Positions 5,618 to 42,814 are shown, counted from the first letter of the stretch. The stretch is DNA of 46,017 nucleotides from Escherichia phage rolling (NC_073056.1); one strand, 5' to 3'. Numbers and translations: made by a program. Notes: generated by a model not told the origin, from the letters alone.

Positions 5618-5791
5618 TTATTCTTGTTCTGCGCGATAGCGGCGCTGCCTTTCACGCTCTTTCTTATTGCGGCACGATTTGCACTCGGCCCGATGACCGT
5701 CTGGACTGCGCGCAGTCTTGCCGGTGTATTTGTGGAACTGGGATAGCGGCTTGATGCATCCGCAATTACTGCAACGTTTTTCTTCAATCAT
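5618..5791 (-). CDS. Zinc-ribbon protein (57 aa; CSNCGC...CKSC)
   Basis: Four Cys in two CxxC pairs; internal ATG (M21) with GAGGA RBS; GCAACCAAT motif at 5848-5856 upstream. Confidence 0.5.
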   Translation of the reverse strand: MIEEKRCSNCGCIKPLSQFHKYTGKTARSPDGHRAECKSCRNKKERERQRRYRAEQE

Positions 5792-5831
5792 TTCTAAAAT
5801 CCTCGATAGTGCTAACCGGCACACTATACCG

Positions 5832-6110
5832 CTACGCGACCAATTCAGCAACCAATAAATTGCAGTCGGCTATGTTGTCTATAACGCGAACGTCAGCACC
5901 GCGGCGGGCCATCCGTTCATGTTCTCGCACCTGGTGCGGCTTCGGTTTTCCGCCGGGGCGCTTCACTTCGACGAATACTACTCTGCCGTTTATGATAATA
6001 ATCAGGTCGGGCGCACCTGCGCGCCCCTCCCATGCCAGTTTGCGGCAGAATCCGCCAACGGCTTTTACCAGCTTCATCAGGTGACTTTGTATCTTGCCTT
6101 CTGGAGTCAT
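5832..6110 (-). CDS. VRR-NUC domain nuclease
   Basis: PD-(D/E)xK-like GAPDLIIIINGRVVFVEVKRPGGKP signature; ATG start; ATGA overlap with next gene. Confidence 0.75.
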   Translation of the reverse strand: MTPEGKIQSHLMKLVKAVGGFCRKLAWEGRAGAPDLIIIINGRVVFVEVKRPGGKPKPHQVREHERMARRGADVRVIDNIADCNLLVAELVA

Positions 6111-6298
6111 TTGGTTTGCAACTCCACGTTACGCAGACGTAGATCTACCGGTATGTCAGATCGACCGGTTAGCGCCAGCGCCAGGTTTTCAGGCGTGACA
6201 AGTGCCGTAATGGTCTTGCCACGTTCCAGTCTAAGGACGATGCGAATCTCGGCATCGTCCGTCGCGCCAGCGCGCATTATGCTCATTTCTGCTTTCAT
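6107..6298 (-). CDS. Hypothetical small protein (63 aa)
   Basis: Track ORF 6107..6343 from internal ATG (M16) with AGGAAG RBS. Confidence 0.45.
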   Translation of the reverse strand: MKAEMSIMRAGATDDAEIRIVLRLERGKTITALVTPENLALALTGRSDIPVDLRLRNVELQTK

Positions 6299-6302
6299 AA
6301 TC

Positions 6303-8594
6303 TTACTTCCTGTACCGGTACATAATGTCGCCTTCGGCGGCAAGTGGGAAACCTTTCGCCCATATAGGCAGGTCGCACATCAGCGCGCAAAGCTCCTCGG
6401 TCGTGTAGTCGTCGGTGTCCGGCACTTCCGTGATCAATTCATCGTGCACTGACAGGACGATTTCATAGCCCGCAGCTTCAACACCAGGCATGGACCATGC
6501 GAGAATATCGCGGCACAACGCCTGTACGATGTTCTCCGTAAGTTTGCCGCCGTAGGTGTACTGGAATCCCCACTGGCGCGTCGTCTGATTCTCGCCCTGG
6601 TATTTGATGCGGGTACTGGTGCGCTTCTTGCCGGTGTCTTCGTCAATTTCAGTCGTGACAGACAGCGCGATGCCGGGGTAGCTCATGATGCGCCCCGACG
6701 GCAACTCAATTTTCAACCACCACCCCGCGGCGTTCGGGTCGTCGCGCTCCTCGTCGAAGGTTGGGTCGTGCTTCGCCTTCGTGCGCACAATCTTGAGCGC
6801 TTTCCTACCGTCCGGGCGAACGTTCGCGCCAGCCCAGTATGCTTTACCCGGATTGCGGATTGCACACAGCACCGCTTCCTCAAGCTCGGCCCAAAAGGCT
6901 ACGGTCTTCGGGTGCGACTCACGCCACATACGTTTGATCGCGTCGCAGGTCAACCACACGTTTTTAGGCAGTATGTAGGTTGGGCGCTCGTCTTTCTTGC
7001 CAGGCTTCGGCGGGCGCTTCGCTTCGTTGATGCGGGCAAACTCATAGCCACGCTTCGCCGCCGCCCAAATGTGATCGGGGAATGTTCCCTTCATTACGTC
7101 AGCCATCGCGTACAGGTCGAGGCCCAGGTTTTTAGCGAACTGCAAGAACGCAGCAACGCCGCCACCATATCCCAGTCCCAATTCACACGCCTTACCAATC
7201 TGGCGTAGGTCTTTGCGGTTGGCCTTGATGTAGTCCGGGTCGAGGCCGAACATCTTACCGGCAGTTTCACAATAGATATCGCGTCCGGCCTTAAACACCA
7301 TTAGCGCGGTTTTCTCGCCCGCGATCCAGGCAAGGCCGCGCCCTTCCACGTTGGAGTAGTCCGCTACGACAAACTTCTTGCCCTTAGCCGGGATAATGCA
7401 CCCGCGAACGGTCGAGGCGGTTAGCTTCGATATGTCATACGCCCAGTGTGCGGTACCGCGTAACAGGGAGTTGATGCCGTTGGTGAGCATATGAGATCGG
7501 ACCCAAAACGAAACGTCGCTCTCACCTTCTCGGCGCTTAATCTTCCCTTCGTGGTCATCACTGTACTCGCCACGTGCCAGGTTTTGAGGCTGAAAGCCTT
7601 TACCGGCCCAGCGTAGTGTGCGCTTTGCCCCACCGTACTGAAGACAACCACGGCGGCGACCATCGGCAGACAGGCCATTTACGAGCGGATTGTATTTAGT
7701 CGATGCCGTTGATGACGCACCGAGGCGCATCTCAATAAGCACTTTGCCCTCGTCGGGGAAGTCTGGATCTTCCAGCAAGTCATTCAGCGTGGATTTCTGC
7801 GCGTTGTGAATTGTGAACGCCGGGGCAATATCACGCAGGATTGGCAGGAAGTCATTGCCAGTCAGCTTACCGCCGAACAGTTCCCAGGCTTCTTCCTTCA
7901 ATTCCTCTTTATGCACCTGCACCGCCTTGATCGCGGCGTTAGCCAGGTCAACGTCCACATAGAAGCCACGGTCGTTAATCAACTGGTCAATAAGCAGGAT
8001 TTCGTCTTCCTTCGGCGTGTTACCCCAGTCCGGTATGCGCCAGTAGACTTCACGCATTGCGATAATATCCAGCGCGGCATAGCGCAGGAATTTAGCCCAT
8101 TCTTCCGGGTGTGTGTCGCGGGTGTAGCGGCGGATTTTGTAGGTCTTAGGGGTAGGCTTACAGAATCGTTTGATCAGCGCCTTGCCAGCCTTATCCTTCG
8201 CGTGCTCTGCGTCAACGCCCAGTACCCGGCATTGCATATCAAGACTACCCGGCAGCGCATGTCGGAAGGCCATAATCATGGTATCTTCGATCTGGCTTAC
8301 CGGCAGGTCAATACCCCACTTTTCACGGATAACCAGGCGGTCAAACAGGAGGCCGTTCGCCATCACTATTTTTGCTTTTTTGCGGGTTACCTGGCGGAGC
8401 GCCTTGCGTAGTTCACGCGGCATCGTGGGAGATTCAGTGGCGTCCCATGTCTGCACGCGGCCCTCGTCTATGGCGTAGGTGCAAATCATAATCTCGGTGG
8501 TGGGGTGTTCCGCGTAGGCATACGCACCTGCTTTCTTCAGGTCCACCCCGCTAAACGTCTCGGTGTCGAGAAATAGGCGTTCGAAGTCTTTCAT
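6303..8594 (-). CDS. DNA polymerase, family A, with 3'-5' exonuclease domain
   Basis: Exo I motif FLDTETFSG; Pol motif A DYSNVEGR, motif B KACELGLGYGG, motif C SVHDELITEV. Confidence 0.95.
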   Translation of the reverse strand: MKDFERLFLDTETFSGVDLKKAGAYAYAEHPTTEIMICTYAIDEGRVQTWDATESPTMPRELRKALRQVTRKKAKIVMANGLLFDRLVIREKWGIDLPVSQIEDTMIMAFRHALPGSLDMQCRVLGVDAEHAKDKAGKALIKRFCKPTPKTYKIRRYTRDTHPEEWAKFLRYAALDIIAMREVYWRIPDWGNTPKEDEILLIDQLINDRGFYVDVDLANAAIKAVQVHKEELKEEAWELFGGKLTGNDFLPILRDIAPAFTIHNAQKSTLNDLLEDPDFPDEGKVLIEMRLGASSTASTKYNPLVNGLSADGRRRGCLQYGGAKRTLRWAGKGFQPQNLARGEYSDDHEGKIKRREGESDVSFWVRSHMLTNGINSLLRGTAHWAYDISKLTASTVRGCIIPAKGKKFVVADYSNVEGRGLAWIAGEKTALMVFKAGRDIYCETAGKMFGLDPDYIKANRKDLRQIGKACELGLGYGGGVAAFLQFAKNLGLDLYAMADVMKGTFPDHIWAAAKRGYEFARINEAKRPPKPGKKDERPTYILPKNVWLTCDAIKRMWRESHPKTVAFWAELEEAVLCAIRNPGKAYWAGANVRPDGRKALKIVRTKAKHDPTFDEERDDPNAAGWWLKIELPSGRIMSYPGIALSVTTEIDEDTGKKRTSTRIKYQGENQTTRQWGFQYTYGGKLTENIVQALCRDILAWSMPGVEAAGYEIVLSVHDELITEVPDTDDYTTEELCALMCDLPIWAKGFPLAAEGDIMYRYRK

Positions 8595-16369: not shown

Positions 16370-17013
16370 AACTGATATTCCGCAATAAACATAATGGGCG
16401 ATTCCTTACCCCGATCGAAGTGCTGCCGAACTATGTGCGCATGTACCATGAGCCGAGCGACCGCGTATTCTGGTACAAGAAATCCGGCCTACATAAACAT
16501 TTGCAGGTTGTGCATCACGACGTGCGGGTCGGGGATGTGCTGCGTGATAGCAACGACGGCAAACTGTTCGTAGCCCAGCGCGTTAGTACTGTCAGCGTTA
16601 AACTGCAAAGCCGCAATACACAGCGCGTCGTACCGCCCGAAGGCTTAATTAACTTCACTCGCGTAGGTCGGAACTATTTGCTTAAGCAGTTCAAGCGCCA
16701 CGACGCCGTGGCGAAAGATATTACCCGTACGGAGCACCCATATACCAAATACGATGCCAGTCAGGCTAACGCGCGCATGAATGCCGCCATGCGCGACCTG
16801 ATTGACAAGCAGTATGCTGTTCGCCAGGCTAACGACGACGCGAAGAGCTACGGCGTTGGATTCATCCGGGTAGAACGAGACGGCAGTATGACGTCCATCG
16901 ACCCGCGCTCGACCCAACTGAAGATAGTCGAAGTGAGCAAATGTTGCCGGGCAGAAGTTGTGCGCGACCCCGGCGGGCAAGCCTTCTGTCGCGAGTGTGC
17001 GGGTGTGATATGA
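16366..17013 (+). CDS. Hypothetical protein (215 aa) with C-terminal Cys-rich zinc-ribbon-like motif
   Basis: ORF track; ATG with GGAG RBS; C-terminus CCRAEV...CRECAG. Confidence 0.7.
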   Translation: MKLIFRNKHNGRFLTPIEVLPNYVRMYHEPSDRVFWYKKSGLHKHLQVVHHDVRVGDVLRDSNDGKLFVAQRVSTVSVKLQSRNTQRVVPPEGLINFTRVGRNYLLKQFKRHDAVAKDITRTEHPYTKYDASQANARMNAAMRDLIDKQYAVRQANDDAKSYGVGFIRVERDGSMTSIDPRSTQLKIVEVSKCCRAEVVRDPGGQAFCRECAGVI

Positions 17014-17150
17014 GCGCAACCATCCGTGATATGCTTATGCACAACCGTTTTGAGATAGGCGGTCGGGTGTTTCGCAATTACTTCGTGGCGCGTGCCTGGG
17101 CGCGCCATATTGGCAAACCAGAGGGGGCAATACGATGCTACACGATTTGA
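17010..17150 (+). CDS. Hypothetical small protein (46 aa)
   Basis: Internal ATG (M24 of track ORF 16941..17150) in ATGA overlap with upstream stop. Confidence 0.4.
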   Translation: MSATIRDMLMHNRFEIGGRVFRNYFVARAWARHIGKPEGAIRCYTI

Positions 17151-17422
17151 TATTTTGGTTTGGTTTGGGGTGTGCGTCACTCTTTGCTATGGTGCTGGCG
17201 CTGTTGATTTGGATCTTTCTGGTATGGCCCGCGGTGGAAGCCGCCAGCATTACCCGGATGACGTTCCAGATATACAAGCGCCGAGGCATAACGGAACACC
17301 CGACCAGGTTGCGCATGTGGTGGCTATGGTATCGGGATATGATAGGGGGCAGGATGTTCGAGGCCGTCCGATCGGAAGGGTGGGAATGGAAAGGCGTCGG
17401 CAAGTGGTCCATTTTCGATTAA
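17135..17422 (+). CDS. Membrane protein (95 aa)
   Basis: ORF track; hydrophobic N-terminus FWFGLGCASLFAMVLALLIWIFLVW. Confidence 0.5.
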   Translation: MLHDLIFWFGLGCASLFAMVLALLIWIFLVWPAVEAASITRMTFQIYKRRGITEHPTRLRMWWLWYRDMIGGRMFEAVRSEGWEWKGVGKWSIFD

Positions 17423-17439
17423 TTATGCAAGCGTGATAT

Positions 17440-17474
17440 AGTCCCAGTGAGCTAAAACTTACTGGGACTTTTTT
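17440..17474 (+). terminator. Intrinsic terminator abutting the holin start codon
   Basis: 9-bp stem AGTCCCAGT/ACTGGGACT, 12-nt loop, T5 tract ending 1 nt before ATG 17475. Confidence 0.55.
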
Positions 17475-17765
17475 ATGGATAAGCTAAACGAGTGGTTATT
17501 CGCCCTCGCGTGTCTGGCGGGTGGCTTTGTTGGCGCCCGCATTCACGGCGAGGCTACGAAAGGGCCGCTAAACTTCGTTTTATATATCGTGGTCGGCTTC
17601 TTGTGCGCCGTGTTTGGGGCACCAGCTATTGCCGAGTGGTTTAATCTAACCGGACCGAGAACTGTCGCCGGTCTTGGCTTCGTAACGGCAATCTTCTGGA
17701 TGCCGGTCGCCGCCAGAATCCGTGAAGCAATCTCCTCGTTCCGTCTGCCGGGGAATGCAAAATGA
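17475..17765 (+). CDS. Putative holin (96 aa, multi-TM)
   Basis: Hydrophobic helices; sits directly upstream of endolysin. Confidence 0.55.
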   Translation: MDKLNEWLFALACLAGGFVGARIHGEATKGPLNFVLYIVVGFLCAVFGAPAIAEWFNLTGPRTVAGLGFVTAIFWMPVAARIREAISSFRLPGNAK

Positions 17766-18001
17766 TTATCGCCATCCTGTTATTAGTGATCGGGGCTTCG
17801 TCGCTGTATAACGTATACGCGCCATCCGTCCAGGATGGCATTTGCGGACGGGTGCTCTACCTGCTTACAGCAATGACCTGTATTATTGGCCTGATGCAAA
17901 CGGGGGGCGTATCGAATACAGTCTGGTCCGTGCTAATCTGGCTATTCGCATTACGCACACTGCGTAATGCTGTTTTAAATGGGGTAAAACATGCGATTTA
18001 G
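17762..18001 (+). CDS. Membrane protein, putative holin/antiholin partner (79 aa)
   Basis: Two or three predicted TM helices; ATG with GGGGA RBS; overlaps flanking genes. Confidence 0.5.
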   Translation: MIIAILLLVIGASSLYNVYAPSVQDGICGRVLYLLTAMTCIIGLMQTGGVSNTVWSVLIWLFALRTLRNAVLNGVKHAI

Positions 18002-18482
18002 TGACAACGGTCTAAGATTTACGGCAGCGTGGGAGTCGTTCAGCCCAGTGCCGTATTTCGCGACTAAGAAGGAGCAGGCCCGCGGCTTGTACACCTGGGG
18101 CTACGGTCATACTGGCACTAATCCGCCACAGAGCATTACCCGCGCGGAAGCGCTGGAGCTACTCAAGCGTGATGTGGCGTATGCCGAGAACTGGGTGAAC
18201 AAGTACGCACACCCGAGCATCAATCAGGCGCAATTCGACGCGCTGGTGGATCTGGTAATCAATGCCGGTCAAGGTCCGATCGTACCGGATAACATTGCCA
18301 ATGACTTCGATGACGCGGTGCGCCTTGGTGATTGGGCCAAAGTCCGTGCTACGCTGCCGCAGTTCCGCAAGCAAGGCGGTGAAGTGCTCAAGGGCCTGGT
18401 ACGTCGTGCAATCGGCAGACAGGCGCTATTCGATGGTAAGCAGTGGGACGTTGCCGAGAAAATCGGTCGTAACGCGGCATAA
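17991..18482 (+). CDS. Endolysin, lysozyme-like (GH24-type)
   Basis: GLYTWGYGHTG and FDALVDLVINAG resemble phage lysozyme motifs; follows holin genes. Confidence 0.8.
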   Translation: MRFSDNGLRFTAAWESFSPVPYFATKKEQARGLYTWGYGHTGTNPPQSITRAEALELLKRDVAYAENWVNKYAHPSINQAQFDALVDLVINAGQGPIVPDNIANDFDDAVRLGDWAKVRATLPQFRKQGGEVLKGLVRRAIGRQALFDGKQWDVAEKIGRNAA

Positions 18483-18498
18483 TAAGAGGAAACACAGT

Positions 18499-18666
18499 AT
18501 GTTAAAAAGTATTCTTGATCATAACGCGAACGCACTTGCCGCACTGGCTAAAACGGAAGACCCAGGCGCGCGCGCCATTATCGCGGACACTATCAGTCAT
18601 GCGGGTGTCTTTGACGCGAAGCTGCCAAGCCCGCCACCGCCGGAAGAACCAGGCCCAGCGGCATAA
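18499..18666 (+). CDS. Hypothetical small protein (55 aa, Pro-rich C-terminus)
   Basis: Internal ATG (M80 of track ORF 18262..18666) with AGAGGA RBS. Confidence 0.45.
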   Translation: MLKSILDHNANALAALAKTEDPGARAIIADTISHAGVFDAKLPSPPPPEEPGPAA

Positions 18667-18671
18667 ACACG

Positions 18672-18697
18672 AAGCCCGGTTAATTCCGGGCTTTTTA
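18672..18697 (+). terminator. Intrinsic terminator
   Basis: AAGCCCGG-TTAATT-CCGGGCTT followed by T5. Confidence 0.65.
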
Positions 18698-18762
18698 TTG
18701 CTTGACTTGCAACCAACATAAGGGCCATACTGCAACCAATCAACGAGAAGGAGTAACACACT

Positions 18763-18843
18763 ATGACACGCAATGATATTTATGTACTGGCAATCTGGTC
18801 CGCCGCCGCATTCATCGGTATGGTTATTTGCGAATTGCTATAG
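18763..18843 (+). CDS. Putative 26-aa hydrophobic peptide
   Basis: ATG with AAGGAG RBS at ideal spacing; MTRNDIYVLAIWSAAAFIGMVICELL; below track cutoff. Confidence 0.3.
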   Translation: MTRNDIYVLAIWSAAAFIGMVICELL

Positions 18844-18904
18844 CCCGCCGCCATAAGGACCGTGGTATATTGTCCCCGGACCCATAATCAGGAAGTAAAT
18901 TAAT

Positions 18905-20047
18905 ATGCACCCTCAAACTAAAATTACCGACGAGCAATTGATCGCTGAATTGCAATCTGGCACTACCTCGAAAGATATTGCGAAGAAATACGGCATTGCA
19001 CTTCGTAATGTCTATATGCGCAAAGCCCGCCTGTCGAAGAAAGGTATTGGACACGGCAACGATGCTGTAATCCGTAAGCGCGTTGCCGATGGCTTCGGCG
19101 TTAAGCGTGTATCCGCCCTGGTGCGTGGCAATGGCGAGGAGGTAATGTCCTGGGTCATCACCGAGCAGGACAAGGAGCGCCAACTCGAAGCAATGCGCGC
19201 CGTTGTCGAGGGCATGAATAGCGAAATCACACCGGCAGCACCAGTGAGCGCTCCGCCAGTCCCGATCCAGGCGCTTGACCTGCTTAACCTGTATACCGTG
19301 TCTGACTTCCACCTGGGAATGTTGGCGTGGGGCGAGGAAACTGGCGAAGACTGGGATATGGCAATCGCCGAAGACCTTTTTTACCGCTGGTTTGTCGAGG
19401 CCTTCGCACGCGCACCGGACGCTGGCACTGCCGTTATCAATATCCTCGGTGATATGGCTCATTTTGATAGCCTTGATGCCGTCACGCCAGCCAGTGGTCA
19501 TGTACTGGATGCCGATACCCGCTACCAGAAGTTGGTCCGCTACATGATTCGCATGGTGCGCAACGTGGTTGAACTGGCGCTGCAAAAACACCATAAGGTC
19601 AAACTGCTAATCGTCCAGGGTAATCATGATGAGTCCGGTATGATTTGGCTGGCTGAGATGTTTAATACCCTGTACGAGAACGAGCCGCGCGTCGATGTGG
19701 ACACGTCCCCGGACGTATACAAAATGGTGCAGCACGGTAAAACAACGCTGTTCTTCCACCACGGACACAAAGCACGCTTTGACGCTATCGAGCCGGTCAT
19801 GATTTCTAAATTCAGACAGGCTTTCGGGTCCAGTGAGTACAGCTACGCGCACGTAGGCCACTTGCACCACCAAAAGATTGTAGAATCCCGCAACATGATT
19901 GTTGAACAGCACCGGACCCTTGCCGCGAAAGATGCATATGCAAGCCGCGGCGGTTGGCTGTCCGGTCGTAGTGCAAACGTCATCACCTATAGCGCCAACT
20001 ACGGCGAAGTAGCGCGCTTAACCATTAGCCCGGAAATGTTGAAATGA
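18905..20047 (+). CDS. HTH domain fused to calcineurin-like metallophosphoesterase
   Basis: N-terminal HTH TSKDIAKKYGIALRNVYMRKARL; phosphoesterase motifs GDMAHFD, QGNHDE, HHGHK, HVGHLHH. Confidence 0.75.
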   Translation: MHPQTKITDEQLIAELQSGTTSKDIAKKYGIALRNVYMRKARLSKKGIGHGNDAVIRKRVADGFGVKRVSALVRGNGEEVMSWVITEQDKERQLEAMRAVVEGMNSEITPAAPVSAPPVPIQALDLLNLYTVSDFHLGMLAWGEETGEDWDMAIAEDLFYRWFVEAFARAPDAGTAVINILGDMAHFDSLDAVTPASGHVLDADTRYQKLVRYMIRMVRNVVELALQKHHKVKLLIVQGNHDESGMIWLAEMFNTLYENEPRVDVDTSPDVYKMVQHGKTTLFFHHGHKARFDAIEPVMISKFRQAFGSSEYSYAHVGHLHHQKIVESRNMIVEQHRTLAAKDAYASRGGWLSGRSANVITYSANYGEVARLTISPEMLK

Positions 20048-20256
20048 TTAGACAAGTATTCATGAGCACGCAGGCCACCCGCCTGAAAGAACTACGCAAA
20101 CAACTCGAAGGCTTGCGCCGATTCGAACGAACGGCAGCGGCAGTCGGTATGTCGATGGATGAGCGAATCGAGATACTGTCGCAAATACGATACACAGAAG
20201 GCGCGATAAGCGAAGTACAAAGCATGTTAACCCGATACTACGGGCGCGCCGTTTAA
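20044..20256 (+). CDS. Hypothetical protein (70 aa)
   Basis: ORF track; ATGA overlap with upstream gene. Confidence 0.55.
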   Translation: MIRQVFMSTQATRLKELRKQLEGLRRFERTAAAVGMSMDERIEILSQIRYTEGAISEVQSMLTRYYGRAV

Positions 20257-20274
20257 ACCCCGCAGCCTGCCGAT

Positions 20275-20303
20275 TTGGTGGGCTTTTTTGTGCCTGTTAT
20301 AAT
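20275..20303 (+). promoter_or_regulatory. Sigma70-like promoter with extended -10 (TTGGTG-N17-TGTTATAAT) upstream of terminase genes
   Basis: Consensus TATAAT at 20298-20303 preceded by TG; weak -35 TTGGTG 20275-20280. Confidence 0.45.
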
Positions 20304-20373
20304 CCCCCTTAGATGGCAGGGCCGTCTCCTATGTTGCCGATGGTCGGCGCATATGCACAAAAGGGCTTATATC

Positions 20374-20925
20374 ATGGCAGAAATCAAAGTTAAGGGCCGA
20401 CGCGCCAAACTGGACGGACGAGTGGCAGTTACCCCGCGCCGTAAACCAGGCGAGCAAACAGAACACACCAATCTTGGACCTGAGATCGAATACGGCAAAC
20501 GTCGTAAAGGCGGCAAATGTGGACGCCCGACCGACTACCGCACCGTATATTGTGACCAGCTTCGCCGCTATTTTGCTGATGCCGTAGCTTGGCAGATCAA
20601 CTACTCCGACAAGGGCGCTGCGCAAGTAATCCCTCACAACAAGATGCCGACTCTCGGTCGCTTTGCCGCGGATATTGGCGTTGGCATCGCTTGCCTGTAC
20701 CGCTGGGCGCGCGCACATGAGGAGTTCGCCGAAGCGATGGCGGACGCTATGGAGTTGCAGAAAACTTTCCTGATGGAAGCTGGCGGCGTGACCATCGCGG
20801 CGGGCTTCGCAACGTTCCTGCTTAAAGCCAACCACGGCATTCGTGACGATGCTCCGCTGGATGACGACGAAGATGATAACGGCGACGTCGTTGTCGAACC
20901 TACCGGCAAAGGCCAGGGTGAGTAA
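20374..20925 (+). CDS. Terminase small subunit
   Basis: Internal ATG (M34) with RBS; HTH-like MPTLGRFAADIGVGIACLYRWARAHEEF; immediately precedes TerL (TAATG overlap). Confidence 0.7.
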   Translation: MAEIKVKGRRAKLDGRVAVTPRRKPGEQTEHTNLGPEIEYGKRRKGGKCGRPTDYRTVYCDQLRRYFADAVAWQINYSDKGAAQVIPHNKMPTLGRFAADIGVGIACLYRWARAHEEFAEAMADAMELQKTFLMEAGGVTIAAGFATFLLKANHGIRDDAPLDDDEDDNGDVVVEPTGKGQGE

Positions 20926-22310
20926 TGCGTAACTATGCGGCAGAACACCGCGCACTCGAACGCTCGATCGCAAAGCGCAACCGACCTCCACGCCCTACGC
21001 GCGTTGCGCAGGCCGTCCGTCTGTATCAGCCTGATTGCCTACCGCACCAGGTGGAACTACTGCGCGACACGAAGACCAAAATCCTCGGCCTTTGCTCCGG
21101 CTTCGGTGGCGGCAAGTCGTGGGTTGCGGCACGTAAGGTCATCCAGCTTCTCACACTTAACCCTGGTCATGATGGCATCGTGACAGAACCGACTATTCCA
21201 CTCCTGGTTAAAATCATGTACCCGGAGCTTGAGAAGGCTTTCGATGAGGCTGGATTCCGGTGGAAGTTCAACAAGCAGGACAAGATTTACAGCGTGCTGG
21301 TGAAAGGCAAGTGGACCCGCGTTATCTGCGAGTCAATGGAGAACTACACCCGCCTTATCGGGGTTAACGCCGCGTGGATTGTTGCCGATGAGTTCGACAC
21401 CACGAAGCAAGACGTCGCAATGGCGGCGTATCACAAATTGCTCGGTCGTCTGCGTGCGGGCCTGGTGCGCCAGTTTGTCATCGTATCCACGCCGGAAGGC
21501 TTCCGGGCGATGTATCAGATTTTCGAAGTGGAGAAGGATAGCCAAAAACGTTTGATCAGGGCAAAGACTACCGACAACCACCACTTACCGGCAGACTTTA
21601 TCGACACGCTGCGAAGCCAGTACCCGGCAAACCTGATTGACGCATACCTGAACGGCCTGTTTGTCAACCTTACGTCTGGCGCGGTCTATAAGATGTTTAA
21701 CCGAGAAGAGAACGCCAGCACCGAGGAAGTGCATCCGGATGATACGCTGATTATCGGTATGGACTTTAACGTCACTAAAATGGCGGCGGTTGTGTACGTC
21801 AGACGGCAGCGCACTATCGAGAACAAGGAGTTCCGCGACGAGATTCACGCAGTGGATGAATTTGTGGACCTGTTTGATACCCCGGCTATGATTGAGGCGA
21901 TCGAGGAGCGCTACCCGGAACATTGTGCTGCCGGTCGGGTCGTCGTTTACCCGGATAGCAGTGGCAAGTCGCGTAAGACTGTTAACGCGTCGTCGTCCGA
22001 TATCGCGCAACTGGAAGACGCTGGCTTTGAGGTGGAGTATGACAGCGTTAACCCGCCCGTGAAAGACAGATTGATCGCGATGAATACGATGATGTGCAAC
22101 TCGAAGGGCGTGCGCCAGTATTTTGTCAACCTGGATAAATGCCCTACACTAGCGAAATGTCTGGAACAGCAGGTTTATGACCTGAAGAAAGGCGAGCCGG
22201 ATAAAACCGCCGGTGTGGACCACATGAACGATGCCGCGGGCTACCCTGTTGCGCACCTGTTCCCAGTGATTCGACCTATCGCCGTTGTTCCATCTGTAGA
22301 CTTCTACTAA
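20925..22310 (+). CDS. Terminase large subunit
   Basis: Walker A LGLCSGFGGGKSW; size and position before portal. Confidence 0.85.
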   Translation: MRNYAAEHRALERSIAKRNRPPRPTRVAQAVRLYQPDCLPHQVELLRDTKTKILGLCSGFGGGKSWVAARKVIQLLTLNPGHDGIVTEPTIPLLVKIMYPELEKAFDEAGFRWKFNKQDKIYSVLVKGKWTRVICESMENYTRLIGVNAAWIVADEFDTTKQDVAMAAYHKLLGRLRAGLVRQFVIVSTPEGFRAMYQIFEVEKDSQKRLIRAKTTDNHHLPADFIDTLRSQYPANLIDAYLNGLFVNLTSGAVYKMFNREENASTEEVHPDDTLIIGMDFNVTKMAAVVYVRRQRTIENKEFRDEIHAVDEFVDLFDTPAMIEAIEERYPEHCAAGRVVVYPDSSGKSRKTVNASSSDIAQLEDAGFEVEYDSVNPPVKDRLIAMNTMMCNSKGVRQYFVNLDKCPTLAKCLEQQVYDLKKGEPDKTAGVDHMNDAAGYPVAHLFPVIRPIAVVPSVDFY

Positions 22311-22320
22311 GGAAACGACC

Positions 22321-23841
22321 ATGACCGTTAACGTTGACAACCAGCACCCACTCTATGCGCGCATCGCGCAGGAGTGGAAAATGATCCGGGATTGCGTAGC
22401 GGGGGAGTGCGCCGTGAAGGCGTGCGGCCCCTTGTACCTGCCACATCCCGCCAGTGGCGATAATACCGACCCGAAAGCACGGGCGCGATATAAGGCGTAT
22501 AAGCAACGCGCTGTATTCCTGAACGCCACCGCACGCACGCTTAATGCGCTGTTAGGCGTCGCCTTCGCTAAGCCGGTAAGTCTGGACCTTTCCGGGGCGA
22601 TGGCTGACCTGATTGATGACGTAGACGGCAGCGGAATGCCACTGCCGCAACTCCTGCGCGGTGCTATGTCGGAAGTGCTGCAATCGGGCCGCGCGGGCTT
22701 TATGGTGGACTACGACCGCCAGGCTAACTTTGATGAACTGGGTAACGTAGTGCCGCAGACCGCCGCCGAGATGGCGACGCACCGCCCGCTTATCCGCCTG
22801 TATACGGCAGAACAGATCATCAACTGGCGGCAGACCCACGGGATTGACACGCTAATCGTGCTGAAGGAAACGGACGAAATCAGCACCGAAGACCCGGACG
22901 ACTTTGCAAACCACGAAGTAACGATCTGGACTGAATTGCGCATGATTAACGGCGCAGCACACGCCCGCCGCTGGTTTTACAACGCAGACACGTCCGAGGT
23001 GCAGATGGATTTGCCGCGTGGCTTCACCCGCACCGAGCTTGTGCCGCTGGTGGATGCTGCCGGTCGAGCGCTTACTCAACTGCCATTTTGCTGGTGCGGT
23101 GCGGTGGACAACAACGCAACGCCTGACGCCGCGCCGCTGGCGGATATTGCATCCATCAACATTAAGCATTACAACGCTGAGGCGGACGTTGCCGAGATCG
23201 CGCACATCGTGGGTCAGCCTACCCTTGTCGCCACGGGCTTGACTCAATCATGGGCCGACAAAAACCTGAAGGGCGGGATTGCTCTCGGCGCGACTAAGGG
23301 TGTTATCCTGGGCCAGAACATGGACGCTAAACTGATTCAGGCCGAGGAGCGCAACTTGTCTGTTGCACTTTGTGAGCGCCGCGAATTGCAGATGGCTAAA
23401 CTGGGCGCGGCCCTGGTTGAGAAGGGGACCGCACCCAAGACGGCAACTGAAGCGGCATACGATGCGCAGACTGACAATAGTATCCTGTCGCTCATTGCAG
23501 GTAACGTTGAGAAGGCTTTCAACCGTGCGCTGCAAATCGTCCAGCTATTCACGGGTGATACCGCGGACCAGCGCGTGACGCTGAACAAGTTCTACACCGA
23601 AATCACGGTTGACGCGCAGCTTATGACCGCAATGATGGCTGGTGTGCAGACCGGTACGGTCCGACTGGCTGACTTCATCAAGTGGATGATGGCGCAGGGC
23701 GTTATCGATGACTCGCAAACCGTCGAGCAGGTGGAAGACGAATTGCGAAATCAGAATCCATTGCCTCAAATGTCCCCTGATGCGGTAGAATCTACCGAAG
23801 AAGACCCGGACAAGGTAGCGGACAATGGCGAGAACAATTAA
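22321..23841 (+). CDS. Portal protein
   Basis: 506 aa ORF directly after TerL with AAGGA RBS; acidic C-terminus; call from synteny. Confidence 0.75.
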   Translation: MTVNVDNQHPLYARIAQEWKMIRDCVAGECAVKACGPLYLPHPASGDNTDPKARARYKAYKQRAVFLNATARTLNALLGVAFAKPVSLDLSGAMADLIDDVDGSGMPLPQLLRGAMSEVLQSGRAGFMVDYDRQANFDELGNVVPQTAAEMATHRPLIRLYTAEQIINWRQTHGIDTLIVLKETDEISTEDPDDFANHEVTIWTELRMINGAAHARRWFYNADTSEVQMDLPRGFTRTELVPLVDAAGRALTQLPFCWCGAVDNNATPDAAPLADIASINIKHYNAEADVAEIAHIVGQPTLVATGLTQSWADKNLKGGIALGATKGVILGQNMDAKLIQAEERNLSVALCERRELQMAKLGAALVEKGTAPKTATEAAYDAQTDNSILSLIAGNVEKAFNRALQIVQLFTGDTADQRVTLNKFYTEITVDAQLMTAMMAGVQTGTVRLADFIKWMMAQGVIDDSQTVEQVEDELRNQNPLPQMSPDAVESTEEDPDKVADNGENN

Positions 23842-24928
23842 TCAACATATGGCGGATCGTATGATTCGCCGTCACATCTTCACCCAGCGCCTGAGCAATG
23901 ATCAGGCGCTGCGGGTGTTGGCTATGTGGGAGAAGTTCCGACCCACGTTACTTGGCAAGCTGACCGAGTTACTTGATGGCAAAAAGTCCATGAATAACAA
24001 GGCACTGACCACACTGTTAACGCAAATAGACAAAACCGTCAAAACGGAACTGCGCACCGAGTTTAAGGCGCTGGCTGAAAGCCTTCAGGAGTTTGCCGAC
24101 ACCGAGGCTGATTATCTTGCCGATACATTAACGGCAGCGATCCAGCCTGCGGTAGCCGTACCGGCTGTTGAGGTTGTTGGCGTAGTGACTGGCGCGCAGA
24201 TTGCAGCCACGGCTATGAAAAACCCGTTCCAGGGAAACACCATGATGCAATGGCCTGATTCACTTTCTGAGTGGATCAGGACGCAGATCGGGAATCAGGT
24301 GCGCGCTGGATTCATCCAGGGCAAGCCGACTATGGAAATTATCGCGGACGTAAAGCGCGCTCTCGGCGGTCGTAGCGCGCAAGCTATCTCAAGTGTTGTT
24401 AAGTCCGCAGTAAACCACTATGCGGCGACCGCCCGCGAGTTATTGGTGAAAGCTAATGACGATATTCTCGAAGGTCGCCAATGGTTGGCTACATTGGATA
24501 CGCACACATCACCAATGTGCCAACTACGCGATCGCCTGTTTTATCCTGTTGACGTCACTCCCGACACCAAAGGAAAGCGCGGCGGGAAAGTGGTGGCTGG
24601 ATCACAATATGGCGCTGGTCCGGGCAAGCTACATTATTGCTGCCGTTCGACGGAGACGTGGAAAGTTAAAGGCATGGAAGATTGGCCCAGTGGTAAGCGT
24701 CCGGCACTGAAGGCTGACGCGGGTCGATTGCTGAGTGAGCAGGTCGACGCTCAGACTGATTTCTTCTCATGGGTGCAGCGCCAGCCGCGCCATATTCTGG
24801 AGGAATTATATGGGGTGCAGCGCGCAGACCAGATTATGCGCGGCGTGAAAGTGCCTAAGATGTTCACCGATACCGGCGAACTAATGACTATTGCACAGCT
24901 TAAAAACCGGGGGTTATGGCGTGATTAA
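23825..24928 (+). CDS. Head morphogenesis protein (Mu F / SPP1 gp7-like)
   Basis: Position after portal; conserved-looking HYAATARELL...WLATLDTHTSPMC segment. Confidence 0.75.
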   Translation: MARTINQHMADRMIRRHIFTQRLSNDQALRVLAMWEKFRPTLLGKLTELLDGKKSMNNKALTTLLTQIDKTVKTELRTEFKALAESLQEFADTEADYLADTLTAAIQPAVAVPAVEVVGVVTGAQIAATAMKNPFQGNTMMQWPDSLSEWIRTQIGNQVRAGFIQGKPTMEIIADVKRALGGRSAQAISSVVKSAVNHYAATARELLVKANDDILEGRQWLATLDTHTSPMCQLRDRLFYPVDVTPDTKGKRGGKVVAGSQYGAGPGKLHYCCRSTETWKVKGMEDWPSGKRPALKADAGRLLSEQVDAQTDFFSWVQRQPRHILEELYGVQRADQIMRGVKVPKMFTDTGELMTIAQLKNRGLWRD

Positions 24929-25229
24929 ATATGCGGCTATTGGACTGGTTATCGGTCTGGCGGTTGGATTCTGGCAGGGTGATTCCTACCGCACTGGCGT
25001 TGTGGCGAAAGCGGCGCAAGAAGCGCAAGCGAAAGCCCAACGGCAGCAAACTAAGGTTGTTGAGGGGTCGGTGAAAGCTGAGCAGGCCCGCGACGTGGAA
25101 TACCGGACTATCACGAAAGAGGTTGTAAAATATGTTACGCGTCCTAACCGTCCTGATTGTAGTTTTGATGCTGAGCGCGTGCGGATCAAGCAAAGCGCCA
25201 TCGACGCCGCTAACCGAGTCGGTCTATAG
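24921..25229 (+). CDS. i-spanin (Rz-like)
   Basis: N-terminal TM AAIGLVIGLAVGFW then Ala/Gln-rich coiled coil; start uncertain (in-frame GTG 24921 or track start 24891); contains overlapping o-spanin. Confidence 0.65.
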   Translation: MIKYAAIGLVIGLAVGFWQGDSYRTGVVAKAAQEAQAKAQRQQTKVVEGSVKAEQARDVEYRTITKEVVKYVTRPNRPDCSFDAERVRIKQSAIDAANRVGL

Positions 25230-25362
25230 ACCGCCTTGCACATTTGAGAATGCCTCGGCAGACCCAGACGAAGACTTGCTTGTTGATGTTAAAAATATGG
25301 AGTGCGGATCTAAGCTGCGGGCGCAAGTGCTGGAGTTGCAGAAAATAATTCTGGGGCCGTGA
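25132..25362 (+). CDS. o-spanin (Rz1-like lipoprotein), overlapping Rz in +1 frame
   Basis: Signal peptide with lipobox LSAC, Pro-rich mature part; ATG with AGAGG RBS. Confidence 0.75.
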   Translation: MLRVLTVLIVVLMLSACGSSKAPSTPLTESVYRPPCTFENASADPDEDLLVDVKNMECGSKLRAQVLELQKIILGP

Positions 25363-25379
25363 TGGCCCCCCTTTTGTTA
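25340..25379 (+). terminator. Terminator hairpin, left copy of a 40-bp direct repeat
   Basis: AGAAAATAATTCTGGGGCCGTGATGGCCCC + T-run; GGGGCC/GGCCCC stem, Rz1 stop codon in the loop. Confidence 0.7.
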
Positions 25380-25380
25380 A

Positions 25381-25893
25381 CTACAAACGCATCGGCATGA
25401 TAACTAAAAAGGAACCTCCTTTGAACAGCACGCGTGTTGCCTTGTCTACTCCCTGAAATTCCAGTTTTAAGCCCTCAAACTTATGGTCGAACAATTTAGC
25501 AATTTTGCAGGCGTCGGACAGGTATGCCCCTTTAAACCCGATAGCCTCCACTTTATTGCTGACGAAAGACGTAACTCTTCTCCAGTCTGGAAATCGTCCG
25601 TCTACAATCTCGATGGGTATGGTAGCTATTAATACGTCTTTACTATCGAAGAACGCGGCGGAGGTGCCGTCTATGTTGCAGTATTCGAATTTAGTAGGTA
25701 AGCGGCCTTTAATTGATACTATTTTACTTTCACCTTCTGGAACAACCGCGGACCCGCAGAACAAACGGTGACCGTCGGTAGCCACGATGAATCCTTTCTC
25801 GTCGAAAAATACACCATTTAGGAAGTATCGGACGTCATTAGTTGCGGCGCACATCGTAGCGGCTTTAATGTCGGCATAGTTAACTTTAATCAT
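25381..25893 (-). CDS. Truncated beta-sliding-clamp (DnaN) homologue (about 170 aa)
   Basis: DVRYFLNGVFF...VATDGHRLF, IVDGRFPDWRRV and C-terminal LVIMPMRL match DnaN domain II/III hallmarks as recalled from E. coli DnaN; start at internal ATG (M27) with GAGGA RBS. Confidence 0.75.
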   Translation of the reverse strand: MIKVNYADIKAATMCAATNDVRYFLNGVFFDEKGFIVATDGHRLFCGSAVVPEGESKIVSIKGRLPTKFEYCNIDGTSAAFFDSKDVLIATIPIEIVDGRFPDWRRVTSFVSNKVEAIGFKGAYLSDACKIAKLFDHKFEGLKLEFQGVDKATRVLFKGGSFLVIMPMRL

Positions 25894-25915
25894 TTTCATT
25901 TCCTCGTGGTTATGT

Positions 25916-25955
25916 AGAAAATAATTCTGGGGCCGTGATGGCCCCTTTTTTGTTA
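25916..25955 (+). terminator. Terminator hairpin, right copy of the 40-bp direct repeat
   Basis: 30/30 identical to 25340-25369 then T6; duplicates the last codons of Rz1 plus the hairpin. Confidence 0.7.
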
Positions 25956-26717
25956 GCGCGGAATACCGCAAATCTCGTTGAGTGTTTTCACGTCCAGCGC
26001 CACCGCCGTGGACTTCGTCTTGTTCTGATATGGAATGAACTGTTCAACTTCAGGCCACGCCTTGATCAGCTTCTTATCGGTATTGTGCATATCCAGCACG
26101 CCGGTAACAGTTAGCTTGAACGCGTCATACTTTGCGCGCAACTCGCGGCGGGCCTTGTCATTTCGGTCCAGGCGCTTGCAGAAATCATGATCGGCCGGGT
26201 AGTCTACGCGTCCGCGCGGGAGATATATCGGCAGCACTTTTCCGTCCTCATCCACTTCGCACACTGACGCGAGCATAATTTCCGCGTACCCCGGTACAAT
26301 ATCGCTAACGTCAGGCGCGAGCGTATTCATATATTTCTCTTCCCAGTATCCGCGATGCCGGCGGTAGCTGTATCCGTCACCGCTCATATACAGGGATCGG
26401 ATGTTACCGCCTGCGTTGATTTCGAAATTGTCGCAGTAAACGCACCCAATACCCTTCTGACGGTCTTTGTTATAGCTATACGTCGCCTTGTCGGTGTAAA
26501 CGCTGACGCCATACATCTGCGACTGGTTATTGCGGATTTCTTCGATATATGCGCGTAGCTCGGCGAACGTGCGAATGCCTTTTGGCATACAGTCCAGCGT
26601 AATTGCGTACGCCAGGTCGCGAGAGTCCATCATGATTGATTTGGCTTCAGTCGCGATTTCGTGGTCGCGCAGGATGTTAGCCAGAATCTGGTTTTTAATG
26701 TCTTTTGTCAGTCGCAT
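25953..26717 (-). CDS. Hypothetical protein (254 aa), moron gene antisense to the late operon
   Basis: Track ORF 25953..26762 from internal ATG (M16) with GAGGA RBS; no family recognised. Confidence 0.65.
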   Translation of the reverse strand: MRLTKDIKNQILANILRDHEIATEAKSIMMDSRDLAYAITLDCMPKGIRTFAELRAYIEEIRNNQSQMYGVSVYTDKATYSYNKDRQKGIGCVYCDNFEINAGGNIRSLYMSGDGYSYRRHRGYWEEKYMNTLAPDVSDIVPGYAEIMLASVCEVDEDGKVLPIYLPRGRVDYPADHDFCKRLDRNDKARRELRAKYDAFKLTVTGVLDMHNTDKKLIKAWPEVEQFIPYQNKTKSTAVALDVKTLNEICGIPR

Positions 26718-42579: not shown

Positions 42580-42600
42580 AAGCCCCGAAAGGGGCTTATT
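42580..42600. terminator. Hairpin between convergent genes (putative bidirectional terminator)
   Basis: AAGCCCC-GAAA-GGGGCTT; overlaps the stop of the minus-strand lipoprotein gene. Confidence 0.5.
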
Positions 42601-42814
42601 TGCAGGTTGTGCTTTTGAAATGGCCTACAGACACGTACTGGAAACTAAACGGATAGCCAGCCCGTAACATTTTATGACCGCTAACGTCCGCAACCCCAAA
42701 CACAGGGACTGAGTACTCCATACCACTATTCATGTATGTTGCGTCGCAGATTTTAGACGGCATATTGGCACAACCGGACAAAAGAACCACACAAATCATA
42801 ATTAAAGTTTTCAT
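42596..42814 (-). CDS. Small outer-membrane lipoprotein, Cor/Llp-like putative superinfection-exclusion protein
   Basis: Internal ATG (M22) with AGGAG RBS; signal peptide with lipobox LLSGC; 72 aa; antisense, next to tail fibre genes. Confidence 0.65.
   Translation of the reverse strand: MKTLIMICVVLLSGCANMPSKICDATYMNSGMEYSVPVFGVADVSGHKMLRAGYPFSFQYVSVGHFKSTTCK

Follow-up and report, generated by a model that had tools for sequence, protein, structure and literature searches.

The lysis genes of Escherichia phage rolling (NC_073056.1), whose 46,017 nucleotides were analysed as a whole and are referred to here as the window, lie at two separate loci: two holin genes and an endolysin gene of family GH24 occupy positions 17475-18482, and two overlapping genes for a predicted inner-membrane (i-) spanin and outer-membrane (o-) spanin occupy positions 24921-25362. 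An earlier note, made from the sequence alone, had proposed a lysis cassette split in this way, and every coordinate that it gave holds, with 6,438 bp between the endolysin stop codon and the i-spanin start. We give a probability of about 0.9 to the reading that this is a Dhillonvirus genome whose lysis genes occupy two loci, with the holins and the GH24 endolysin at one and, at the other, an overlapped spanin pair of the Jersey family (its HK578 subfamily), which is joined to the 3' end of the genes for the terminase small and large subunits, the portal protein, and a MuF-like head morphogenesis protein (terS-terL-portal-MuF). The split, which recurs in hundreds of relatives with sequenced genomes, is the normal, previously annotated layout of Dhillonvirus and of the Guernseyvirinae, and thus a trait of the lineage that is not peculiar to one genome.

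The two open reading frames (ORFs) at 24921-25362 carry the sequence-level features by which two-component spanins are recognised (Summer 2007; Kongari 2018), and from homology we infer that they function as spanins, both products having strong matches to Rz-like spanin families in PHROGs (Table 1). The i-spanin has one N-terminal hydrophobic segment at about residues 4-19 (AAIGLVIGLAVGFW), with Kyte-Doolittle windows of at least 1.6 at residues 1-6 and 15 only, and is by this measure a predicted type II inner-membrane protein with a single N-terminal transmembrane domain (TMD); the remainder of the protein is 33% charged and holds a single cysteine, Cys80. Its GTG start codon overlaps the stop of the MuF-like gene by 8 nt (GTGATTAA). 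The o-spanin is read in the +1 frame and starts 211 nt into the i-spanin gene, sharing 98 nt with it and running 133 nt beyond, which is the 'overlapped' architecture. The o-spanin N-terminus reads MLRVLTVLIVVLM-LSAC-GSS, so that a hydrophobic signal peptide is followed by a lipobox (LSAC, of the form [LVI][ASTVI][GAS]C) with the predicted lipidated residue at Cys17; the +2 residue is Gly and not Asp, hence there is no inner-membrane retention signal. The mature o-spanin would be 60 aa long with six prolines, and its Cys36 and Cys58 are, together with Cys80 of the i-spanin, periplasmic cysteines available for predicted intermolecular disulfides. The overlapping Rz/Rz1-type pair with lipobox LSAC that the earlier note had described is thus borne out by the PHROG matches, the frame, the extent of the overlap, and the position of the lipobox cysteine.

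A window-wide screen for a signal peptide followed by a lipobox returned eight combinations of ORF and start codon at four sites; besides the o-spanin these were antisense ORFs at two sites and the gene of a Cor superinfection-exclusion homologue, and the screen gave no second spanin or u-spanin candidate elsewhere in the window. The Cor homologue is the sole other credible lipobox ORF, and it lies on the opposite strand, with the tail-tip region on one side and the lateral tail fibre gene on the other.

Both spanin frames are maintained among relatives. We compared the window with 18 Dhillonvirus loci (15 from IMG/VR and three from GenBank) at 77-94% DNA identity, and none of the 19 sequences had lost the GTG start, either open frame, the lipobox cysteine, or any of the three periplasmic cysteines; the lipobox itself read LSAC, LTAC or MSAC. 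In the part of the locus that encodes the i-spanin only, 46 of 70 columns were variable at third-codon positions versus 12 of 70 at second positions, and in the part encoding the o-spanin only, read in the o-spanin frame, the corresponding counts were 30/44 and 7/43; the shared 98-nt overlap was less variable overall (27 of 95 columns). The intact frames and this codon-position pattern across the 19 sequences argue that both frames are under purifying selection.

The pair can also be placed in a described family. Kongari et al. (2018; PMC6139136) assigned EK99P-1, EP23, HK578, JL1, SSL-2009a and SO-1 to the 'Jersey' families of overlapped i- and o-spanins; they treat 'EP23 to SO-1' as a shorter subfamily and point out two constant o-spanin cysteines. 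Nucleotide identity is 84-91% to HK578, SO-1, EP23, JL1 and SSL-2009a, the i-spanin is 89% identical to that of SSL-2009a, and phrog_2536 and phrog_5672 are common to the window spanins and to those of the Jerseyvirus SeF1. By sequence the window pair belongs to the Jersey overlapped spanin family and, within it, to the short HK578/EP23 subfamily.

The separation of the loci is part of a conserved gene order. The terS, terL, portal and MuF-like genes, assigned by PHROG matches, all lie between the endolysin and the spanins, as the earlier note had stated in placing the pair after the head morphogenesis gene with terminase and portal between; the Dhillonvirus order holin-holin-endolysin ... terS-terL-portal-MuF-i/o-spanin is present in full, all on the + strand, in a window whose 46 kb approximates the size of a complete Dhillonvirus genome. 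The lambda-type arrangement, in which holin, endolysin and spanins are contiguous in one transcription unit, is absent from the window. Megablast with positions 17000-26000 matched 155 deposited phage records, almost all of them Escherichia or Shigella Dhillonvirus (HK578-like siphophages), the best at 97% identity over 100% of the query, and in 94 of the 155 at least 80% of the 9-kb query was recovered in a single collinear piece at 80-97% identity. The GenBank map of Oekolampad reads terS, terL, portal, minor capsid protein, i-spanin, o-spanin ... holin, holin, endolysin, hypothetical, hypothetical, which is the window's layout opened at terS. An i-spanin and an o-spanin are annotated at this position in the BASEL phages Oekolampad (gp05/gp06), KarlBarth, GeorgBuechner, PaulFeyerabend and TheodorHerzl, and other GenBank records use 'Rz-like spanin' or 'putative spanin' there; many of the Dhillonvirus genomes on deposit still leave the o-spanin unannotated or name it hypothetical. 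A 2025 paper on the Dhillonvirus vB_EcoS_P78 lists the endolysin as gene 0033, the holins as 0031/0032 and an Rz-like spanin as 0040 (PMC12677095). Our literature searches turned up no paper that says outright that the spanins of Dhillonvirus or Jersey-like phages are unlinked from the holin and endolysin; PMC12677095 and the SeF1 paper (PMC9409062) give the lysis genes by number only, and PMC5238451 proved to be about a T1-like phage.

The same arrangement extends beyond the genus. A tblastn search with the i-spanin returned 612 phage records, 455 of them at less than 60% identity and mostly Salmonella Guernseyvirinae, and in Jerseyvirus, Cornellvirus and Kagunavirus of that subfamily a spanin pair likewise lies between the head morphogenesis and the scaffold/capsid genes. 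In Shemara (Cornellvirus) the i- and o-spanin genes lie at 7.3-7.9 kb and two holin/antiholin genes with an endolysin, 51% identical to that of the window, lie at 41.1-42.1 kb, which is the same split; the comparison of gene order with related phages that the earlier note had proposed thus finds the layout both in at least 94 collinear records and in Shemara. In the Jerseyvirus SeF1 the spanins are Gp_009/010 (phrog_2536/5672) and the holins and endolysin are Gp_063-065 (phrog_2359/2508) (PMC9409062). K1ind2 (Kagunavirus) and phiEap-2 have their spanins in a Shemara-like position, and the stretches of these two genomes that were examined carry no annotated holin or endolysin. The Guernseyvirinae differ from the window in that i-spanin similarity is confined to the C-terminal half, at 41-60% identity, and in that at least one extra gene separates MuF from the spanins, so that the two do not overlap. 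In Shemara a gene annotated as a metallo-dependent phosphatase (5670-6803, - strand) lies beside the spanins, whereas the phosphoesterase gene of the window lies between the endolysin and terS, a difference that may point to rearrangement around the lysis and packaging genes between the Dhillonvirus and Shemara lineages. Because the same split occurs in another subfamily, it is an old trait inherited in a large clade and not a recent rearrangement, and the layout derives from a common ancestor with the Guernseyvirinae.

A split of this kind would be tolerated if the spanins worked as they do in lambda. By analogy with lambda Rz/Rz1, the N-terminal TMD would hold the i-spanin in the inner membrane, and the o-spanin, carrying a lipid at Cys17, would be delivered to the outer membrane; disulfide-stabilised complexes of the two would then bridge the periplasm, inactive for as long as the peptidoglycan mesh is unbroken. 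Once the holin had triggered and the endolysin had removed the peptidoglycan, these complexes would fuse the inner and outer membranes. Since the spanins would be held in check by intact peptidoglycan, late expression at any time would suffice, and linkage to the holin and endolysin would be dispensable. Membrane topology, lipidation, the role in lysis, and the transcription units discussed below are likewise deduced from the sequence.

Table 1. Positions of the lysis genes of the window, the genes and signals that separate them, and other features mentioned in the text.
Feature	Position	Strand	Description
95-aa protein	17135-17422	+	phrog_2531, unknown function; hydrophobic N-terminal region
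Hairpin before holin	17440-17469	+	12 bp, then T5; ends five bases before the holin ATG (17475)
Holin 1	17475-17765	+	96 aa; three hydrophobic segments (hydropathy); phrog_2359 holin, E 2.7e-32
Holin 2 or antiholin	17762-18001	+	79 aa; three hydrophobic segments; phrog_2508 holin, E 2.9e-24
GH24 endolysin	17991-18482	+	163 aa; PF00959 phage lysozyme, E 1.5e-21; phrog_7
55-aa ORF (gp57)	18499-18666	+	Function unknown; phrog_11068, E 3.9e-38; ends the holin/endolysin block
Terminator-like hairpin	18671-18694	+	9 bp and T-run; closes the holin/endolysin block
26-aa hydrophobic ORF	18763-18843	+	MTRNDIYVLAIWSAAAFIGMVICELL; unannotated; ribosome-binding site GAAGGAG
Phosphoesterase-like	18905-20047	+	phrog_704; weak calcineurin-like Pfam matches; weak N-terminal GerE/LuxR helix-turn-helix
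70-aa ORF		+	Between the phosphoesterase gene and terS
Terminator-like hairpin	20264-20284	+	Upstream of terS
Extended -10 promoter motif	20291-20299	+	TGTTATAAT, read from the sequence; seven bases after hairpin 20264-20284
Terminase small subunit (terS)	20374-20925	+	phrog_3064, E 1.2e-71
Terminase large subunit (terL)	20925-22310	+	phrog_10250, phrog_2
Portal protein	22321-23841	+	phrog_145, E 2.3e-134
MuF/SPP1 gp7-like head morphogenesis protein	23825-24928	+	phrog_241, E 3.2e-113
i-spanin	24921-25229	+	GTG start; 102 aa; phrog_2536 Rz-like spanin, E 1.5e-34
o-spanin	25132-25362	+	76-aa precursor; phrog_5672, E 7.2e-24, and phrog_1267, E 1.6e-11, both Rz-like spanin
G+C hairpin at o-spanin end	25353-25369		GGGGCC-GTGAT-GGCCCC; 6 G:C pairs, 5-nt loop (25359-25363), then CCTTTTGTT
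DnaN-like gene	25381-25893	-	phrog_3007; weak PF02767 match; bracketed by 43-nt repeats
Cor superinfection-exclusion homologue	42596-42814	-	72-aa lipoprotein (MKTLIMICVVLLSGC...); phrog_1119, E 9.7e-28

At the first locus, the gene of holin 1 is labelled holin in the Oekolampad and Pandora71 records. Hydropathy showed no hydrophobic segment in the endolysin, and because its N-terminus is not hydrophobic it is read as a soluble, holin-dependent endolysin without a signal-anchor-release (SAR) domain. The hairpin that closes the block is kept in most of 14 aligned relatives, with a different stem sequence in several and none at that place in one (L014), and WF5505 carries annotated terminators at its equivalents of 17440-17469, 18671-18694 and 20264-20284. 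Downstream of this hairpin, and of a promoter-like TTGACT-18-CATACT, lies the unannotated 26-aa ORF; of the 14 related loci, 9 contain it, with conservative changes. The 95-aa protein encoded directly upstream of the pre-holin hairpin could be related to lysis or to the membrane.

The 6,438 bp between the loci contain seven ORFs, five with assigned functions, together with two terminator-like hairpins and one promoter motif. The window and 13 related loci have identical versions of the hairpin upstream of terS and of the extended -10 motif TGTTATAAT, and only the most divergent locus, L018, departs from them. A generic sigma-70 promoter scan returned 9 sites versus 10 ± 3 in shuffled sequences, and because it did no better than the shuffles its hits were set aside; it misses TGTTATAAT for want of a -35 match, and that motif is supported by its conservation instead. 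These signals suggest three successive + strand units: a first of holin-holin-endolysin-gp57 that ends at the hairpin at 18671-18694, a second of the phosphoesterase gene and the small ORF that ends at the hairpin at 20264-20284, and a third, terS-terL-portal-MuF-Rz-Rz1, that probably starts at the extended -10 motif and ends at 25353-25369. The spanins are thus probably transcribed with the packaging genes from the motif at 20291-20299, and translation of the i-spanin is probably coupled to that of MuF.

The hairpin that would end the third unit contains the o-spanin stop codon, as the earlier note had observed for Rz1: the TGA at 25360-25362 falls within the loop GTGAT (25359-25363), and the 5' arm codes for the C-terminal Gly-Pro. 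None of the 19 sequences has lost the hairpin or the stop codon (TGA or TAA) in its loop, and in one of them the stem has a G:U wobble that changes Pro to Leu. It lies at the boundary with convergent minus-strand genes, and in relatives the T-run follows the stem directly or one C away. Its role as a terminator is plausible and of moderate strength in the window, the terminator scan used being weakly specific (20 sites versus 14 ± 4 in shuffles). A 43-nt direct repeat, 93% identical between 25337-25379 and 25913-25955 (+ strand), takes in the terminal 24 nt of the o-spanin gene together with the hairpin and T-run, and the DnaN-like gene lies between its two copies. Relatives carry one hairpin and a single moron after the spanins, either a gene with an Nmad5 domain (Pandora71, Oekolampad) or the DnaN-like gene (AV129, SO-1), whereas the window and its closest relatives, WF5505 and 101114BS4, carry the DnaN-like and Nmad5 genes in tandem, with the spanin end and terminator duplicated between them. 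Given this choice of one moron or both in tandem around the repeat, the end of the spanin pair with its terminator resembles a joint for recombination, which suggests that morons are gained there.

A more ambitious interpretation is that the split reflects a distinct regulatory design for the timing of lysis in Dhillonviruses, with the spanins late-constitutive and the holin gated by a hairpin. No Shine-Dalgarno sequence is free at the holin start: the sole bases that resemble one, GGGA (17464-17467), belong to the 3' arm of the hairpin at 17440-17469. This hairpin is conserved in 14 loci, and in the most divergent, L018, the stem is preserved by the insertion of a C:G pair. Its effect could be to attenuate transcription of the lysis genes, to block translation of the holin, or both. 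Under such a design the extended -10 promoter of the packaging operon would drive constitutive synthesis of the spanins during late growth, with the i-spanin coupled to MuF, and the holin and endolysin, having no promoter of their own, would be expressed by read-through of the 12-bp hairpin; attenuation together with translational occlusion would then set the holin dose, in loose analogy to the lambda sdi structure. We offer this only tentatively and consider it unlikely as a whole. Separately from lysis timing, the o-spanin 3' end with its terminator may be a joint at which morons are exchanged.

Several observations weigh against the assignment of the distant pair as Jersey-family spanins, or against details of it. 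The single-sequence AlphaFold2 model of the i-spanin is of low confidence (mean predicted local distance difference test score, pLDDT, 56); its two helices, at residues 5-72 and 84-99 with a break at the linker TRPNRPDCSFD, agree with the two-helix organisation reported for the i-spanins of the EP23-to-SO-1 subfamily (PMC6139136), which lends weak support only. Pfam gave no significant match for either spanin, nor for either holin, and PHROGs were therefore needed for both pairs. We found in the literature no experiments on any member of the Dhillonvirus/Jersey spanin family, and according to Kongari et al. (PMC6139136) essentially all spanin experiments have been done on lambda Rz/Rz1. Promoters and terminators were assigned by consensus matches and conservation only, and in the window the T-run of the hairpin at 25353-25369 is offset, with CC between the stem and TTTTGTT and a fold z-score of -1.8.

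If these points are taken at their strongest, the ORFs at 24921-25362 might encode small envelope proteins with no part in lysis, for example an accessory to head assembly or a superinfection-exclusion factor: they sit within the block of head genes, between MuF and the scaffold gene, and their family is known from sequence alone, with nothing in Pfam. The strong PHROG spanin matches of both proteins argue otherwise, as does the combination of a TMD protein with a +1-frame lipoprotein and conserved periplasmic cysteines, which is diagnostic of two-component spanins (PMC6139136). Moreover, a homologous i-spanin (30% identity, E 2e-14) is encoded directly after the endolysin and holin in Klebsiella phage VLCpiS13d, and the window offers no other spanin candidate, its only other credible lipoprotein being the Cor homologue. 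We judge a non-lysis function very improbable. Slightly less credible again is the proposal that a gene next to the endolysin disrupts the outer membrane, in the manner of a disruptin or u-spanin, and that the distant pair is redundant. The ORFs at 18499-18666 and 18763-18843 do lie immediately 3' of the endolysin gene, and the former is conserved (phrog_11068). Its 55-aa product, however, has neither a TMD by hydropathy nor a lipobox in the window-wide screen and is acidic and proline-rich, not cationic; gp57 was accordingly ruled out as a disruptin-like protein, having no hydrophobic segment. The 26-aa ORF for its part has no lipobox and no PHROG match and is missing from 5 of the 14 aligned loci, whereas the spanin pair is under purifying selection and conserved in all relatives compared. 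That the split is an artefact of assembly or circular permutation, or a recent rearrangement in a single genome, we regard as practically refuted. The window is apparently a whole genome opened at an arbitrary point, and in deposited relatives, which start at terS, the spanins come near the left end and the holins and endolysin at the right. Yet the window holds the 9-kb interval in one piece, the same interval is collinear in at least 94 independent records, the split recurs in another subfamily, and measuring the opposite way round the genome only lengthens the distance.

The two-locus organisation with a Jersey-family spanin pair illustrates that spanin genes need not be linked to those of the holin and endolysin, although its importance beyond correct annotation is small. 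As linkage is not needed, annotators should extend the search for overlapped lipoprotein ORFs beyond the 'lysis cassette'. For the engineering of lysis-deficient or spanin-modified therapeutic phages, the target of a spanin knockout is the locus after the head morphogenesis gene, and the hairpin at the holin start, with the separate transcription unit predicted for the spanins, could inform the timing of lysis in this widely used group of coliphages.

Set beside other systems, the window is closest to the rest of Dhillonvirus, across which the i-spanin is 84-99% identical and which shares the overlapped +1-frame arrangement, the position after a MuF-like gene, the hairpin with the stop codon in its loop, and the distant holin-holin-endolysin block; nothing substantial differs besides the presence of both downstream morons in the window, WF5505 and 101114BS4. 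Lambda resembles the window in having lysis genes directly upstream of the terminase and portal genes, and differs in that Rz1 is fully embedded in Rz and the four genes are contiguous in one late transcript, whereas in the window the o-spanin outruns the i-spanin and the pair lies downstream of the terminase, portal and MuF genes, apparently behind two terminators and a separate promoter. Lambda Rz/Rz1 and the window pair have no detectable sequence similarity and fall into different PHROG families. Unlinked lysis genes are a textbook feature of phage T4, in which the spanins pseT.3/pseT.2 lie away from the holin (t) and the endolysin (e), a precedent for dispensable linkage. The sole explicit statement of this kind that we found, that spanins are not near the holin or endolysin, concerns T4 (PMC6139136). 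The T4 spanins have a 'separated' architecture and an unrelated sequence, and in T4 the three lysis functions are mutually unlinked, whereas in the window holin and endolysin remain together. VLCpiS13d provides the opposite case. Its i-spanin is homologous to that of the window over nearly the full length and its GH24 endolysin is 32% identical, and its MuF-like protein has no detectable similarity to that of the window; endolysin, holin and i-spanin are contiguous there (6502-7536), in a slot after the portal and head morphogenesis genes. With a contiguous cassette in VLCpiS13d and a split one in the window, a single spanin family occurs in both contexts.

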